Shown here one piece after another: positions 43,659 to 49,363 of a stretch of DNA of 64,000 bases; the stretch's first letter is position 1; each line of letters begins with the position of its first letter. The notes beneath the pieces are model-generated. The model had not been told where the DNA came from. It searched no databases and was given only the letters and a program-made list of their open reading frames with translations. The position numbers were made by a program, and so were the translations under genes. This stretch comes from Escherichia phage FL38: sequence record PP400784; one strand, written 5' to 3'.

Positions 43659-43748
43659 AGTCTCTTCCTCTCTTCGTTTTCGATGCTCTCACTATATCAC
43701 AGAAAAATAAAAAGGGAAACCCCTTTCAGAGTCTCCCTTATAAAGCCA

Positions 43749-44037: not shown

Positions 44038-44271
44038 TTATTTTACCTCTGGGATATAATCAATTATTAAAGAAAATTCATCTTCTGATACATTATAGCT
44101 ATGTGAGATTGTACCCGTAAAGACCTCAAGATCCGGTGATTTGATATTGCACGGATCGATAATCACCGGAACGCCGCAATCTCTCAAAAATAATTTGGCG
44201 AAATACGGCACAAGGTCAGTTTCAAACTCTGCTTCTTCCAGCAAACGGGAAATGTTAATTTTCAATCTCAT
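44038..44271 (-). CDS. hypothetical protein, 77 aa
   Basis: Track ORF. Confidence 0.3.
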
Positions 44272-44788
44272 AAAATTGGTCCAAGCTAGGCAATTCCTCG
44301 GTCAATACATCTTCAACCTTTGGCGCTTTCGGTTTATTGACCGATTCCTCGTAGTTGTTGATTTTATCGTAAATGTCCTGTATGAATGCCTCATCAGCAA
44401 TCTGGCACATATCAGCGTCGCGTTCGTCATATACATGATGCACAAAATATTTGTATTTTGCGGCTGTCGCTGTTCTCTCTTTTTTAATGCGCTGTACAAA
44501 AGCATTAAAGCACGCTTGCGTGATGTAAGCATGAGGATTTTTATACTTTGTCTCGTCAAAATTAATCAAACCCTTGACCGCCGCTTCGATTCCGTCGTCG
44601 ATCATTTCTTCGCGCCACGTTTGACTATAACCAGAAAAGTTAAAACGACGTGATAGATTTTTAGAGATTTGCATAATTGCTAGGCCGATTTGATCGCTCA
44701 TTGGAACTTGCCGACCTTCTGCTGCAATTTGTTGTTTCCAACGGCAAATTTCTTCGTAAAGCTCTTTATTGTTTACATAATCAGACAC
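44255..44788 (-). CDS. 55: late-transcription sigma factor gp55
   Basis: 177 aa; match to remembered T4 gp55 (YVNNKEL...I..W near the N-terminus); position after gene 47. Confidence 0.85.
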
Positions 44789-44828
44789 TTCGCACCCTCG
44801 CTATTATTTAGGAAATAACCCTTTCGGG

Positions 44829-46298
44829 CTATTCCCCATTACCATTATACTTTCTTTGCTTAGTTATCCACACTCTAACCATCTCTACAGATTCGCCGTC
44901 AGACGGATCAAGAGTTTTTCCTTTTTTCTTCATGCGGTACTTAAATCCGTTAAATCTTGCATTCTCTTGCTCGTTAAAGTCGAACATCTTTTTAAATGAT
45001 TTTCGCCCTTTACGTTCACCACATTCTAGCGGAATCATTCGATCTGTTATTACATTGGCATTAGGCAGAAACGTTTTTAGATAATCCACCAACGCCCAAT
45101 CAGGAACATATAGATTAACATTCTCCTTGCTCTCGTTGTCTCTCAGGTTACAACGCAAACATAATTGAAATGCTGGTTCCAGATAATCAGACACATGACG
45201 CGCTTTCAAAAACTCGTTTGTCGGGAGATCACAACTATTAGCAAGACCTTTTAAAATATCAATCTCCCATCGTTGAGGGTTAAAGCTGAACATCACAGCA
45301 ACATTTTTATGATGAATGTAAGAGTTAAGACCATAAGACCCGTAAGGTATCCGCTCACCAATACCATTTGTACACGCTTCACGGTCCCGATTCACGGTAT
45401 AAATGAAGTCATCGCCACATTCATTTTTAACCATATCAACAAGACGTTCAAAGGTATTGTTTGTTTCTGACTGGTGACGCGACCATCGTTCAGAGTCCGT
45501 CATAAGGATGATATTAACTCTATCTGTATTTTTATACTCTTTGAAATATAGTCTGGATTCTAGCGCACTCGGAACAAAATCGCAATTTGCATAGTATCGT
45601 AGATACTTCCCACTATATGTATCAAAGAGATTTGCACATGCTATCGTAACCTTTTTAAAGTCTCCCCACGTACCGTGTTTGTTATCGTTCAAGAAAACAA
45701 TTTTCGACCCATTCTTCCGGTGTCCTTCGTTATGTTTTACCATAACGTTGATTTTCTTCTCTAATAACGCCTCATAAAGCCCTCTAAGAGAAGAATCGAT
45801 CATATCAGTACCATCCTTCGCACTTTCTATCTTTTCTTTGATAGCGGCCTTCTCAGAGTCTTTTAGAACTAAGTTCTGTAGGCATTCCGATTCGTCGGCG
45901 ATTGGTTCGCAATGCTTCGTGATAAGTTCAAGATTAGACTTAAACGGATACTCATTAAATTCAACCAGTTGAGGAACTTCATCAATGTAAAGAGCATAAT
46001 CACCAAACATTTTTGAACGTTCCATATTAGATAACGCTGTATGTGTAATGAATATCACATCAGCACCATCTTTAACTGATTGCATTATCGACGCTTGCAC
46101 TGTCTTAAGGCTTCTTAGTCTTGTGCTATCAATCAAGACAGCACGACCGCCCATTCTTTTAAACTTATTGTAAGATTGTTCACTTAAAACACGAGATGGC
46201 GAAGCAATAACCGCTTTTTCTTTTGTCTCTAGGACGTGGGAAAGTATAGCATCAGTTTTCCCCGCCGCTGGCAATGCGATTAATGTTTCAATCTTCAT
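44829..46298 (-). CDS. P-loop NTPase of unknown function, 489 aa
   Basis: ATG 46298 with AAGGG upstream; Walker A LPAAGKTD at residues 9-16, motif-Ia-like SPSRVL, Walker B/DExx YIDEVP about 95 aa later; no canonical helicase motifs beyond that. Confidence 0.5.
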   Translation of the reverse strand: MKIETLIALPAAGKTDAILSHVLETKEKAVIASPSRVLSEQSYNKFKRMGGRAVLIDSTRLRSLKTVQASIMQSVKDGADVIFITHTALSNMERSKMFGDYALYIDEVPQLVEFNEYPFKSNLELITKHCEPIADESECLQNLVLKDSEKAAIKEKIESAKDGTDMIDSSLRGLYEALLEKKINVMVKHNEGHRKNGSKIVFLNDNKHGTWGDFKKVTIACANLFDTYSGKYLRYYANCDFVPSALESRLYFKEYKNTDRVNIILMTDSERWSRHQSETNNTFERLVDMVKNECGDDFIYTVNRDREACTNGIGERIPYGSYGLNSYIHHKNVAVMFSFNPQRWEIDILKGLANSCDLPTNEFLKARHVSDYLEPAFQLCLRCNLRDNESKENVNLYVPDWALVDYLKTFLPNANVITDRMIPLECGERKGRKSFKKMFDFNEQENARFNGFKYRMKKKGKTLDPSDGESVEMVRVWITKQRKYNGNGE

Positions 46299-46585
46299 TA
46301 GAAACCCTTACGTCGTGCTTTCTGGCATTTCTTGATCATTTTATCAGAAATTTCGCGCTTAGGTGCAATCTCTTTCACACCGAAAGCACTAATGCCAAAT
46401 TCAGAGAGAATATATTCAACCAACAATTCACGCACACGCGCTTTACCGATATTCACGCCGTTATTTTTCAGATATGTCTGGCCTTCGACTTGCATCAGAT
46501 CTAAATCTGCGTCGGTAATATTGATTTCTTCCATGCGCCCAAATCGAGAATAAACCATGTGTGCGATTGCATTGTGTACTAACAT
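46298..46585 (-). CDS. hypothetical protein, about 95 aa
   Basis: Start moved to ATG 46585 (GAGGA upstream); track start is TTG. Confidence 0.35.
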   Translation of the reverse strand: MLVHNAIAHMVYSRFGRMEEINITDADLDLMQVEGQTYLKNNGVNIGKARVRELLVEYILSEFGISAFGVKEIAPKREISDKMIKKCQKARRKGF

Positions 46586-46606
46586 AATATATTCCTCACT
46601 CAAGAA

Positions 46607-46765
46607 TTACTTAATGATACTTACTTTACCAGATCCATGACAATGAGCGCAACACCCATCACCACGCAATCCTGTTCCGTTACAGTGTTTACACTTCTTC
46701 AACGGTAAAGCCATTATAGCAAATAAAGCAATAATGAATACCGAAACTAAATTCTCAATAATCAT
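46607..46765 (-). CDS. small membrane-anchored zinc-finger protein, 52 aa (not in track)
   Basis: ATG 46765 with GAGGG upstream; hydrophobic N-terminus then CKHCNGTG...CCAHCHGSG, two CxxCxGxG repeats as in DnaJ zinc fingers. Confidence 0.3.
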   Translation of the reverse strand: MIIENLVSVFIIALFAIMALPLKKCKHCNGTGLRGDGCCAHCHGSGKVSIIK

Positions 46766-47024
46766 AAATCGCCCTCAGTTCTTTATAGCCTCCAATGTGC
46801 TCGTTGTCAATGAATATCTGGGGGTATACAAATCGGAGGCTCTTTGAGTTCATCCTCCCCGCCAGTTCTTCAATCATATCACGGTCGGGAATAATGTCAA
46901 CCCCGACCTGCTTGAATACTGGTTTAAGTGTATACGGAATACCCAGATCATCCAGTAGCTTCATTGCACTAATACAACCATAACAATGATAAGCCTCTTT
47001 CGGTATACCGTATATCTCGATCAT
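46755..47024 (-). CDS. glutaredoxin-like protein (NrdH-like), 89 aa
   Basis: CYGC redox motif near the N-terminus; upstream of the nrdG/nrdD cluster. Confidence 0.55.
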   Translation of the reverse strand: MIEIYGIPKEAYHCYGCISAMKLLDDLGIPYTLKPVFKQVGVDIIPDRDMIEELAGRMNSKSLRFVYPQIFIDNEHIGGYKELRAIYDY

Positions 47025-47497
47025 TTCTCAGCCTTTAATCTTTCTAGTTCTTCTTCCAGTTCCTTGATCCGTTGGTCACGTTCAAAGTCACGCTGCAACT
47101 TAGTGGCGAATACTCGTTTAAACTGATTGTAATCATCGATTTTAAACACTTCTTCTTCGCCATAGCGACGCACAGAAACTTCGTAGTTATTGAAGAATTG
47201 TTGCATCATTGCTTCGGATGATAGCTCTGCTGATACCACTTTAAAATATTGATCTTCTGTAGGCGAAAACCAATTACAAGCATAAAGATAAACCTTTTCA
47301 TTGTCTGGACACTGGTAAGCCTTACCATCGATTTCAATCACAGAAACATATTCAGGTATACTAGATGAATCAATAGCTAAGACTTTAAACGCACGGTCCC
47401 CGATAAACTCGGAGATCACACGATTCGCATCACTGGTTGCAAATGCTTTACGCGCTTGTTCGTTTTTCCACTGATAGGTCATGCCAACAACAAACAT
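47021..47497 (-). CDS. member of the nrdGD-flanking paralog family (N-terminal beta domain plus C-terminal coiled coil)
   Basis: Start set to ATG 47497 (GAGG upstream); motifs GMTYQWK, IEIDG and a C-terminal charged heptad region. Confidence 0.45.
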   Translation of the reverse strand: MFVVGMTYQWKNEQARKAFATSDANRVISEFIGDRAFKVLAIDSSSIPEYVSVIEIDGKAYQCPDNEKVYLYACNWFSPTEDQYFKVVSAELSSEAMMQQFFNNYEVSVRRYGEEEVFKIDDYNQFKRVFATKLQRDFERDQRIKELEEELERLKAEK

Positions 47498-47498
47498 A

Positions 47499-48323
47499 TT
47501 ACCAACCTCGCTCTTTACCAATCAAAAATTCAACTTCACGACGTTTAATGTCTTCTTGAAGGTCTTTAATCTTCTGGCGATCTTGCATGATTTCATCCAT
47601 CTTGTCAAGTGCCGCAATGAAATCATCGAAACGTTCAAAGGTTTTACCTTCATTTGCTTCGCCAAATTTAACCATTGTCAGGCCGTAACGACTACTAAAC
47701 AGACGTTTCAACTGTCCAACGATCTTAGAATCAGTGGTTATAACTTCCAATTCTTCTACTTCACGAAAGAATTTTCTATCAGAATCAATAAACCAGCTAG
47801 TTCCTTTATGGTCTCTATCTTCGGTTGCGCTCATTAGAGTATGGTCTTTACCATCAATTTCAATTACATCAATTTGCCCACATGGACGAACATTTTTAAC
47901 AGTAAAAGGTCTATAATTTATTGCTCGTGCAATAACATAATTAAGATTAGATACGTTTTCAGCATAATGACAGAAGTCGGTCATAGCATTCGCATCTTTC
48001 CAAGTATAAGTTTTACCAACTTCCCATTTCTGGGGAACTTCTTCAACTTCACGAAAGAATTTTCGATCGAATGGACTAAAGAAATATGTTGCAGTCCAAA
48101 TGTCTTTTCCTGTAGCAGTTTTCGCCGTATGATAAACACCGTCTAGCTCTATTGCATCAATCCAACCGTTACCATCGATCTCGATGATGGTAAATGGCTT
48201 GTCACCAATAGCTGCACTAATATCGCTGTTAAGTGGAGAAAGAACACCTTCTCCGTTAGTAATAAACTCAGTTTTAGCGTTTTCATCTTTCCAGGTGTAG
48301 GTTTTACCAATTTCCCATTTCAT
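47499..48323 (-). CDS. paralog family member with duplicated N-terminal domain, 274 aa
   Basis: KWE(I/V)GKTYTWKD...IEIDG...RKFFREVEE occurs twice, followed by a coiled-coil tail. Confidence 0.5.
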   Translation of the reverse strand: MKWEIGKTYTWKDENAKTEFITNGEGVLSPLNSDISAAIGDKPFTIIEIDGNGWIDAIELDGVYHTAKTATGKDIWTATYFFSPFDRKFFREVEEVPQKWEVGKTYTWKDANAMTDFCHYAENVSNLNYVIARAINYRPFTVKNVRPCGQIDVIEIDGKDHTLMSATEDRDHKGTSWFIDSDRKFFREVEELEVITTDSKIVGQLKRLFSSRYGLTMVKFGEANEGKTFERFDDFIAALDKMDEIMQDRQKIKDLQEDIKRREVEFLIGKERGW

Positions 48324-48335
48324 AATATATTCCCC

Positions 48336-48821
48336 TTAACCGATTTTATCAAGTTCGTTTAATGCTTTCTCTGCTTCCTGTATAGCTTGCACCCTTTCCG
48401 GCATTTTGTCAAGAAAATCTTTCAACTCTTCAAAACTGGAGATATGACGCAATGCGTTAGCACCGATAGCCGCATGTGATTTGCATTCAAAGCGGATTTT
48501 ATAATTATCCATCGCCAATTTGAGAAGGTCTATTAGATCATATTCATGACCAGGCAATAAAACTTCTTTGAAGCACGCTCGGTCGCCATCGGAAAACCAT
48601 ATATTATCACCAACATCGATAGAACTAATATAATCCCCTTCGTGATTATAGATTGAACGTACATTACCCCAACGGTCTACCGTAGCGACAGTAAATGGTT
48701 TATCTAGATATGTAAACACACCATCAATATTAGGTTTTTGTTCGTAACGCCAACAATCACGCAAAATGCGCTTTTCGTCCTCACCAACCAACTTATATGT
48801 CTTCCCTTCTTCCCATTTCAT
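48336..48821 (-). CDS. paralog family member, about 161 aa
   Basis: Starts MKWEEGKTYKL at ATG 48821; coiled-coil C-terminus. Confidence 0.45.
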   Translation of the reverse strand: MKWEEGKTYKLVGEDEKRILRDCWRYEQKPNIDGVFTYLDKPFTVATVDRWGNVRSIYNHEGDYISSIDVGDNIWFSDGDRACFKEVLLPGHEYDLIDLLKLAMDNYKIRFECKSHAAIGANALRHISSFEELKDFLDKMPERVQAIQEAEKALNELDKIG

Positions 48822-48825
48822 AATA

Positions 48826-49353
48826 TCATCTCTCATTTTTGATACGTGATTCTAATTGGATCATACGGTCGCGCGTTTGTTTGTATTCTCGGATAGCACC
48901 GATCCGGCTAGGCATACCATCCAGTACGCTCTTAATACCTTCTAGGGTAGTGATTTTAGCAATGCTATTATGCAACCCCATCTTATCGATCAACTGAATG
49001 TCGTAGGCTTCCATAAGCAGACCCAGACGTTCTAAAGTTAGGTCTTCTTCTTTTTCTTCAGAATCTGGAATCTTAGGTTCAATAATAACTTCGGTAAAGA
49101 AACGACGCTCACCCGACCAAAACCACACACCGGAACAGCCAATAGGGGATTCTTTTAACGTCATAGAGTCGAAATCACTACCGATAATAGTAATTTCTCT
49201 AACATCACCATCATCGTCAATGTCTTCTACCCTAAACGGGCGACCAGCCAACAAGTCAACAATACATCTGTTAATAGACGACGAAAATTTAGTCAGTTCG
49301 GCTTTCGACGCTTCGCATTCAATCTTGTAAGTTTTACCAACTTCCCATTCCAT
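48826..49353 (-). CDS. paralog family member, about 175 aa
   Basis: Starts MEWEVGKTYKI at ATG 49353 (GAGGTGA upstream); coiled-coil C-terminus. Confidence 0.45.
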   Translation of the reverse strand: MEWEVGKTYKIECEASKAELTKFSSSINRCIVDLLAGRPFRVEDIDDDGDVREITIIGSDFDSMTLKESPIGCSGVWFWSGERRFFTEVIIEPKIPDSEEKEEDLTLERLGLLMEAYDIQLIDKMGLHNSIAKITTLEGIKSVLDGMPSRIGAIREYKQTRDRMIQLESRIKNER

Positions 49354-49363
49354 AATAATCACC

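Follow-up and report, generated by a model that had tools for sequence, protein, structure and literature searches.

A candidate SF2 helicase of probable XPD/DinG-like architecture encoded next to gene 55.2 in an RB49-like coliphage

Results

A 489-residue protein is encoded between genes 55.2 and 55

The 64-kb window (the whole stretch of DNA that we analyzed, 64,000 nucleotides) stems from a Krischvirus, i.e. an RB49-like T4-type coliphage. Its minus strand bears a real, ATG-started ORF for a 489-aa protein (Table 1), at the place given in a preliminary description of the locus. Across 3.1 kb around the gene, the DNA is 99.9% identical to that of phage kaaroe and 99.1% identical to that of RB49, and the encoded protein is the ortholog of RB49p044 (RB49ORF044c), sharing 99–100% identity with the Krischvirus proteins. 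Judged by its widespread sequence homologs, a chance ORF is ruled out.

In the direction of transcription, the local gene order is nrdH, a 52-aa ORF, a 55.2 homolog, the helicase-like gene, 55, a-gt.5, a-gt.4, 47 and 46, all on the minus strand. The preliminary description had rightly placed the gene in the stretch from gene 47 via 55 to nrdH and had remarked on the missing alpha-gt gene, none being present among the genes around the helicase-like gene; it had also put the gene after gene 55, while by direction of transcription it lies immediately upstream of gene 55 (44255–44788). The equivalent slot of T4 holds the 87-aa gene 55.1, which is unrelated to the helicase-like gene.

Elsewhere in the neighborhood, the HNH endonuclease gene that RB49 carries between 47 and a-gt.4 (RB49p040) is missing from FL38; at 43659–43748, the window has only ~90 bp with a terminator-like hairpin (43712–43739, minus strand), as would be expected if a mobile homing endonuclease had inserted in RB49. 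Four tandem phrog_5347 paralogs fill 47021–49362 on the minus strand (47021–47521, 47499–48323, 48336–48836 and 48826–49362); the 274-aa paralog at 47499–48323 has an internal duplication, and the N-terminal parts of the paralogs are weakly similar to goF mRNA-metabolism modulator families. The 52-aa ORF between nrdH and 55.2 (46607–46765, minus strand; phrog_3931) encodes a hydrophobic helix followed by a CxxC...CxxC pattern and is annotated as a 'putative membrane protein' in phage W115.

Table 1. Features of the helicase-like gene and its surroundings, in window coordinates
Feature	Position	Strand	Basis
CDS, 489-aa SF2 helicase-like protein (RB49p044/RB49ORF044c ortholog; PHROG 2467)	44829..46298	-	ORF list, identity, PHROG 2467, Pfam DEAD
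RecA-like domain 1, first part, aa 1–109 (β1, Walker A, Ia, 'VIFITH' strand, Walker B)	45972..46298	-	AF2 secondary structure, Pfam DEAD, conservation
Motif I/Walker A, PAAGKT, aa 10–15	46254..46271	-	Translation; K14 invariant, G13 in at least 90% of 80 distant homologs
Motif II/Walker B, YIDEVP, aa 104–109 (D106-E107)	45972..45989	-	Translation; D106, E107 invariant in wide alignment
Insertion domain of ~105 residues, aa 110–215, mixed α/β, between motifs II and III	45654..45971	-	AF2 model
RecA-like domain 1, second part, aa 216–255, with motif III equivalent KVTIACAN (aa 216–223)	45534..45653 (whole part)	-	Translation, conservation
RecA-like domain 2, aa 256–420, with W272-S273, motif IV–VI equivalents and V398-P-D400	45039..45533	-	AF2 model; conservation
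Motif VI equivalent QLCLRCNLR (Q378, R382, R386: putative arginine fingers)	45141..45167	-	Translation; invariant in 80 homologs
C-terminal basic helical tail, aa 421–489	44829..45038	-	AF2 pLDDT and secondary structure; alignment A1
55.2 homolog (Pfam DUF7570), upstream of helicase-like gene	46298..46603	-	Pfam DUF7570, E 1.4e-28; 41.7% identity to T-even 55.2
Sigma-70-like promoter candidate, TTGACA-16-TGnTATGAT, 11/12 matches, extended -10 TG	46873..46900	-	Consensus scan only
Second sigma-70-like promoter candidate, 10/12 matches, directly upstream of 55.2	46614..46643	-	Consensus scan only
13-bp perfect hairpin, GAAA tetraloop, overlapping helicase-like stop codon, before gene 55	44809..44838	-	RNA fold

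The gene adjoins 55.2 and is probably transcribed early

The ORF directly upstream is a genuine 55.2 homolog (Table 1), and its TAA stop codon overlaps the ATG of the helicase-like gene in a TAATG sequence at 46296–46300, an arrangement that suggests translational coupling of the two genes; AAGGG is found ~8 nt upstream of the helicase-like start codon. The RB49 gene likewise follows 55.2 directly with a start/stop overlap, and in RB16 55.2 and the helicase homolog overlap by 4 nt, although the next gene downstream there is gene 34 and not gene 55. In phages Aes508 and PS2, 55.2 and the homolog are set apart by two or three small ORFs. The helicase homolog has thus kept its place near 55.2 in the T4-like genomes compared. 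At least 1,092 phage records contain gene 55.2, against 243 with the helicase homolog, so that 55.2 is not dependent on the helicase.

This arrangement could reflect a partnership with co-translated 55.2, a Topo I inhibitor in T4, in the management of R-loops: Topo I inhibition would favor R-loops, and a helicase of the DinG type would then resolve or process them, for instance at origins or where replication runs into transcription. Besides the stop/start overlap in the window and the 4-nt overlap in RB16, published observations fit such a scheme: plasmids primed by R-loops reach a higher copy number with T4 gp55.2, an inhibitor of E. coli Topo I (PMC4396842), CasDinG unwinds RNA/DNA hybrids (PMC10450177), and replication through highly transcribed regions requires DinG in E. 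coli (PMC2770101). However, the far wider distribution of 55.2, its pairing in T4 with the unrelated small gene 55.1 in the same slot and the small ORFs that split the pair in PS2 and Aes508 all argue against it, and in the early clusters of T4-like phages, genes often stand side by side for historical, not functional, reasons. We therefore regard this partnership, a narrower version of the explanation favored below, as fairly unlikely.

Of two sigma-70-like promoter candidates (Table 1), the one at 46873..46900 stands upstream of the 52-aa ORF, 55.2 and the helicase-like gene. Scanning for the T4 late promoter core revealed none near the helicase-like gene, and the core TATAAATA occurs once in the 64 kb (position 2941, plus strand), compared to 5.4 occurrences expected from shuffles. 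The scarcity of this core suggests that the window may be made up mostly of early-type transcription units. As read from consensus matching only, the sigma-70-like candidates and the scarcity of the late core fit early transcription, which is probable for the helicase-like gene along with the 55.2 homolog. At its other end, the gene runs into a predicted hairpin (−20.3 kcal/mol, z = −3.2 in RNA folding) that lies ~20 nt ahead of the GAGG/GTG start of gene 55. The lack of a following U-tract sets this hairpin apart from classical terminators, and it may act in RNA stability or processing.

Homologs form a large phage family

Homologs were detected by tblastn in 243 phage records at 31–99% identity. 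All Krischvirus records have the gene at 98% identity or more, while homologs of 34–42% identity are found in the RB43/RB16 group, in many T4-like phages of Aeromonas (25, Aes508, 65, PX29 and others) and in T4-like phages of Cronobacter, Enterobacter, Citrobacter, Klebsiella, Serratia, Proteus, Morganella, Providencia and Erwinia. More distant tblastn matches include the Agrobacterium jumbo phage Atu_ph07 and Pseudoalteromonas phage PH357. T4, T2/T6 and RB69-type phages do not appear among the tblastn matches listed. Fold matches in BFVD add proteins of phiRSL1, Fnu1, Motura and H101, which are unnamed or generically named. An exhaustive profile search returned 1,319 cluster representatives (50% identity) at E ≤ 1e-3, 758 of them at E ≤ 1e-10; a word-indexed homolog search with the wide alignment yielded no further proteins or names.

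The wider family falls into a short class of ~480–550 aa and a long class of ~750–890 aa, the latter with a C-terminal extension of ~350 residues that has no Pfam match. Examples of the long class are the Atu_ph07 homolog (L005, 4908–7196) and proteins in the series P0064–P0189; one of them, P0075, weakly matches the C-terminal part of the 'DNA primase' PHROGs 2135 and 17236. A tblastn search of plasmids with a long homolog gave three unannotated Sinorhizobium megaplasmid matches only, and the neighbors of long homolog P0043 on its only contig are uninformative; scans of viral contigs with single proteins, made for the genomic context of distant homologs, gave no match. In Aeromonas phage Aes508, a gene annotated as 'DprA-like DNA recombination-mediator protein' (L003, 4429–5004) overlaps with its end the start of the helicase homolog. 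It has no Pfam match at E ≤ 0.01, and as the annotation lacks Pfam support, no recombination role was argued from it.

The protein carries a full set of SF2 motif equivalents

The preliminary description had recognized a P-loop NTPase, and its Walker A, motif Ia and DExx elements are confirmed: the motif Ia region, ASPSRVLSEQS, spans aa 32–42, and D106 of the Walker B motif lies 92 residues past K14, close to the ~95 residues first given. Only nine residues precede the Walker A motif, leaving no room for a Q-motif. The same description had seen nothing resembling helicase motifs III–VI. Equivalents of these motifs are conserved in both of our family alignments.

In an alignment of 38 homologs (A1; 31–99% identical), the conserved blocks besides I, Ia and II are T218-I-A-x-A-N223 at motif III; W272-S273; F298-I-Y-T-x-N303-x-x-R306, the motif IV equivalent in the second RecA-like domain (FIYTxN303xxR306); G323-L-N325 followed by N340-P341, the motif V equivalent; E374-P-x-F-Q378-L-C-x-R382-x-x-x-R386; and V398-P-D400. 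A second alignment, A2, comprised 80 of the 1,319 representatives, which are 18–43% identical to the query. Across these distant homologs, K14, D106, E107, G323, N325, Q378, R382 and R386 are invariant, and at least 90% of the sequences share G13, L38, A222, S273, N303, V398 and D400; at motif III, N223 is the consensus residue. The invariant set, comprising the Walker A lysine, the Walker B acidic pair, the motif V glycine and the motif VI glutamine with two arginines, is the sequence pattern expected of an active SF2 NTPase. It also bears on the idea of a degenerate, non-catalytic helicase relic that would act as a scaffold only: a marginal Pfam score (see below) would fit such a relic, but the catalytic residues (Walker A K, Walker B DE, motif VI Q/R/R) are invariant across ~1,300 clusters with identities down to 18%, and we consider it highly improbable.

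Sequence profiles assign the first RecA-like domain to SF2

The only Pfam family above threshold is DEAD (PF00270), which matches aa 11–130, from Walker A to just beyond Walker B and hence only the first RecA-like domain (RecA1), with 27.3 bits at a gathering threshold of 26. A Pfam scan up to E = 10 gave DEAD, AAA_34 and two spurious matches, with no DEAD_2, Helicase_C_2 or PF00271, and NCBIfam gave no match. The protein belongs to phrog_2467 (E 2.9e-175), annotated as 'unknown function'. The preliminary description had called it unassigned. In nearly all records the RB49p044 orthologs are indeed named 'hypothetical protein'; one GenBank record has 'putative helicase', however, and Nolan et al. 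noted in 2006 a weak DEAD/DEAH match for RB49ORF044c (Pfam E = 0.069; PMC1524935), to which the Pfam DEAD score above now adds. Some homologs bear the UniProt name 'Helicase ATP-binding domain-containing protein'.

The single protein retrieved nothing in a search of PDB sequences, and the family profile retrieved RecA1 domains of generic SF2 type only (DEAD-box, reverse gyrase, PriA, NS3), the best matches being those of DEAD-box proteins. In hhalign runs, the wide family profile aligned with the single E. coli DinG sequence at motifs I and Ia only (probability 8%) and gave a short alignment with the single E. coli RhlE sequence (probability 28%), neither of them informative. In PADLOC, the 489-aa protein had no significant match (one spurious match of 13.6 bits); long homologs gave weak CasDinG matches, confined to RecA1.

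The predicted fold is closest to XPD/DinG helicases

An AlphaFold2 model built from the 38-sequence alignment (mean pLDDT 87.8, pTM 0.76) predicts a two-RecA core whose first domain is interrupted by the insertion domain, followed by the C-terminal tail (Table 1); no further domain was found in the 489 aa of the model. Within the T4-like group, C130, D165, L178, D205, W211 and F214 of the insertion are invariant. The tail, which includes a short low-confidence linker (aa 426–431), is particular to the T4-like subgroup, where E445 and W477 are invariant, and is not conserved in the wider family.

Fold comparison returned XPD/DinG helicases as best matches (the two values of the comparison in brackets): F. 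magna DinG (18.4; 358), XPD 3crv (18.2; 334), CasDinG 8s35_M (17.7; 324), XPD 2vl7 (17.5; 317) and Rad3 5fmf_Y (17.4; 337), with TM-scores of the model to XPD that are moderate, at 0.42–0.50. The proposal that the protein is not a helicase is contradicted by these results, i.e. the full SF2 two-RecA core, the motif III–VI equivalents with putative arginine fingers and the XPD/DinG-best fold. A clear match to a known family, for example a helicase, had been named as grounds against the first description, and in essence a helicase match that explains the motifs was obtained, though by sequence profile as generic SF2 only. Neither a terminase large subunit nor a nucleotide or polynucleotide kinase was matched in the Pfam, NCBIfam, PHROGs and PDB fold searches, and both of these P-loop classes were rejected on that ground; the suggested kinase role finds no support in the predicted two-RecA helicase fold.

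Another reading is a role in conflict, in which the protein would be an anti-defence factor or a phage-borne exclusion/defence motor akin to CasDinG or Hna-type helicases, acting on competing DNA instead of in the phage's own replication. The housekeeping helicases XPD, Rad3 and DinG, however, score as well as or above defence helicases in the fold comparison, the protein lacks a significant PADLOC match, a nuclease or any other effector domain, and no conserved effector partner gene accompanies it. We consider a conflict-related function unlikely.

The gene co-occurs with DNA modification genes in several phages

The preliminary description had linked the gene to the missing modification genes, in that a modification-related NTPase or kinase might stand in for the missing glucosyl-hmC system. 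Its position in the 47–55–nrdH region, T4's a-gt location, and the absence of the homolog from the T-even phages, which have a-gt, would agree with such a replacement, but the expected co-occurrence with glucosyltransferase absence was not found. In Serratia phage PS2, a homolog (40% identity) occupies the same slot ahead of gene 55, and the genome also has gene 42 (dCMP hydroxymethylase), b-gt and a second glucosyltransferase, the beta-glucosyl-HMC-alpha-glucosyltransferase (L009, 2760–6468 and 19166–20602). Erwinia phage Cronus and Aeromonas phages AS-gz and avDM10-HWA combine the homolog with a gene 42 homolog (dCMP hydroxymethylase; 56–58% identity), and another phage with the homolog, Aeromonas phage 25, carries gene 42 according to Petrov 2010 (PMC2993671). 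Moreover, RB49 DNA is cut by HpaII and NheI and its cytosines are therefore unmodified (PMC4041780), which counts against a modification role, as does the predicted two-RecA helicase core, which would be neither a kinase nor a transferase. On the gene content of these sequences, the replacement reading appears largely refuted, and we hold it to be very improbable. Absence of the gene from the a-gt-carrying T-even phages looks like lineage history, not functional replacement. As a side observation, the DNA polymerase gene 43 of PS2 is annotated as two split CDS.

Discussion

A compact accessory helicase or translocase is the favored explanation

The 489-aa protein is almost certainly an SF2 two-RecA NTPase. 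Walker A, a Walker B DExx box and a second RecA-like domain with motifs IV–VI and putative arginine fingers are all present. The model makes an XPD/DinG-like architecture probable, and a DNA helicase or translocase acting in phage DNA metabolism is somewhat favored over other functions. Taken as a whole, a compact XPD/DinG-like accessory DNA helicase/translocase is, on balance, the likelier explanation. We prefer an accessory ATP-dependent DNA helicase/translocase on account of its fold, its complete set of invariant catalytic residues, a probably early expression and a location in the replication/recombination region. The term 'nucleic-acid-dependent NTPase', one of the roles first proposed, remains the best general description.

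We envisage a catalytically competent SF2 NTPase motor, predicted to have the XPD/Rad3/DinG architecture cut to a minimum. As judged from the conserved residues and the model, NTP would be held between the RecA domains, by K14/T15 and D106/E107 on domain 1 and by Q378/R382/R386 on domain 2. Hydrolysis-driven opening and closing would then move the protein along single-stranded nucleic acid gripped by motifs Ia, IV and V, while the insertion domain, by extrapolation, might assist in clamping the tracked strand or in splitting a duplex. The parallel with XPD, DinG and CasDinG would make DNA, possibly RNA/DNA hybrids, the substrate and 5'→3' the direction. Both polarity and substrate are extrapolations from such analogies, given that sequence profiles recognize only RecA1, as generic SF2, that the TM-scores are moderate, that motif VI is spaced unusually and that there is no Fe-S pore; it might translocate or remodel instead of unwinding. 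Most likely, it would serve as a non-core, lineage-specific accessory helicase/translocase in phage replication, recombination or repair, with tasks such as clearance of D-loops, R-loops or protein obstacles. T4 and its close relatives do without the gene, which is thus dispensable for replication of the T4 type.

A more far-reaching picture would have a large, phage-specific clade of minimal XPD/DinG-type helicases without an Fe-S cluster (~1,300 clusters; ~490-aa and ~800-aa forms), with this protein as its founding T4-like member; in T4-like phages, such a helicase would be co-translated with the Topo I inhibitor gp55.2 and would control R-loops or D-loops on phage DNA as a fourth, lineage-specific replication/recombination helicase beside gp41, Dda and UvsW. 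We regard this picture as unlikely. On present evidence, the protein is a fairly ordinary accessory DNA helicase candidate, not a new kind of enzyme or system. The 2006 hint for RB49ORF044c (PMC1524935) was already known; new here are the complete SF2 core, the predicted compact, Fe-S-less architecture resembling XPD/DinG, the large unannotated phage family and the rejection of the modification link. A widespread 'hypothetical protein' (PHROG 2467), present in 243 cultured phages, many of them of Aeromonas, Cronobacter, Enterobacter and Klebsiella, and in ~1,300 sequence clusters, has thereby become a testable candidate for a minimal XPD/DinG-type helicase, and a tempting but wrong tie to the missing hmC glucosylation has been removed. 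If confirmed, a lineage-specific helicase would join the T4-like replication/recombination toolkit, and mechanistic studies would gain one of the smallest natural scaffolds with an XPD architecture.

Comparison with known helicases

Some other helicase groups share only part of the features. DEAD-box RNA helicases have a Q-motif, D-E-A-D, S-A-T and Helicase_C, whereas the 489-aa protein has no Q-motif, reads DEVP and A-x-A-N at the respective positions and lacks PF00271; with PF00270 covering RecA1 only, it was not placed among them. T4 UvsW is likewise a phage helicase of SF2 type with two RecA domains in T4-like genomes; orthology was rejected on fold and profile grounds. The anti-phage helicase-nuclease Hna has 821 aa with a nuclease effector, whereas the 489-aa protein has neither such a domain nor a PADLOC match, and XPD/DinG score clearly above Hna; the spurious 13.6-bit match and the lack of an effector domain likewise separate the protein from the defence helicases catalogued in PADLOC.

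XPD-family helicases possess an Arch domain between motifs II and III and an Fe-S domain between motifs Ia and II. The insertion of ~105 residues predicted for the 489-aa protein falls between the same two motifs as the Arch and might take its place. Motifs Ia and II of the protein are separated by ~60 residues with no conserved Cys, so that no Fe-S cluster is expected; the 4Fe-4S domain with its four Cys is missing, the only invariant Cys residues in A1 being C130 and C380 and none being invariant in A2. Without an Fe-S domain, the XPD strand-separation pore cannot form in the same way. Lack of a functional cluster is shared with CasDinG and Firmicute DinG, accepted members of the XPD family (PMC10450177, PMC3270479). 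CasDinG combines two RecA domains with N-terminal, arch and vestigial Fe-S domains and acts as a 5'-3' helicase on dsDNA and RNA/DNA hybrids (PMC10450177). Unlike these Fe-S-less relatives, the 489-aa protein has nothing at the Fe-S or vestigial Fe-S position. It is also much smaller than XPD/DinG-type proteins (489 versus 550–740 aa), lacks an N-terminal domain, its Walker A motif starting at residue 10, shows Q-x3-R-x3-R instead of the usual QxxGRxxR spacing in motif VI, and ends in a basic, family-specific tail unlike XPD/DinG.

Sequence likeness to XPD/DinG is confined to the generic SF2 motifs, with no match to a Pfam model or other sequence model of the XPD family, so that sequence does not establish specific membership; we therefore file the protein as an SF2 helicase type whose architecture resembles XPD/DinG and make no claim of DinG orthology. 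In overall fold, the members of the XPD/Rad3/DinG family come closest, and the nearest known systems are the SF2 5'→3' DNA helicases of this family, especially the Fe-S-less CasDinG of type IV-A CRISPR and the Firmicute DinG proteins of F. magna and S. aureus.
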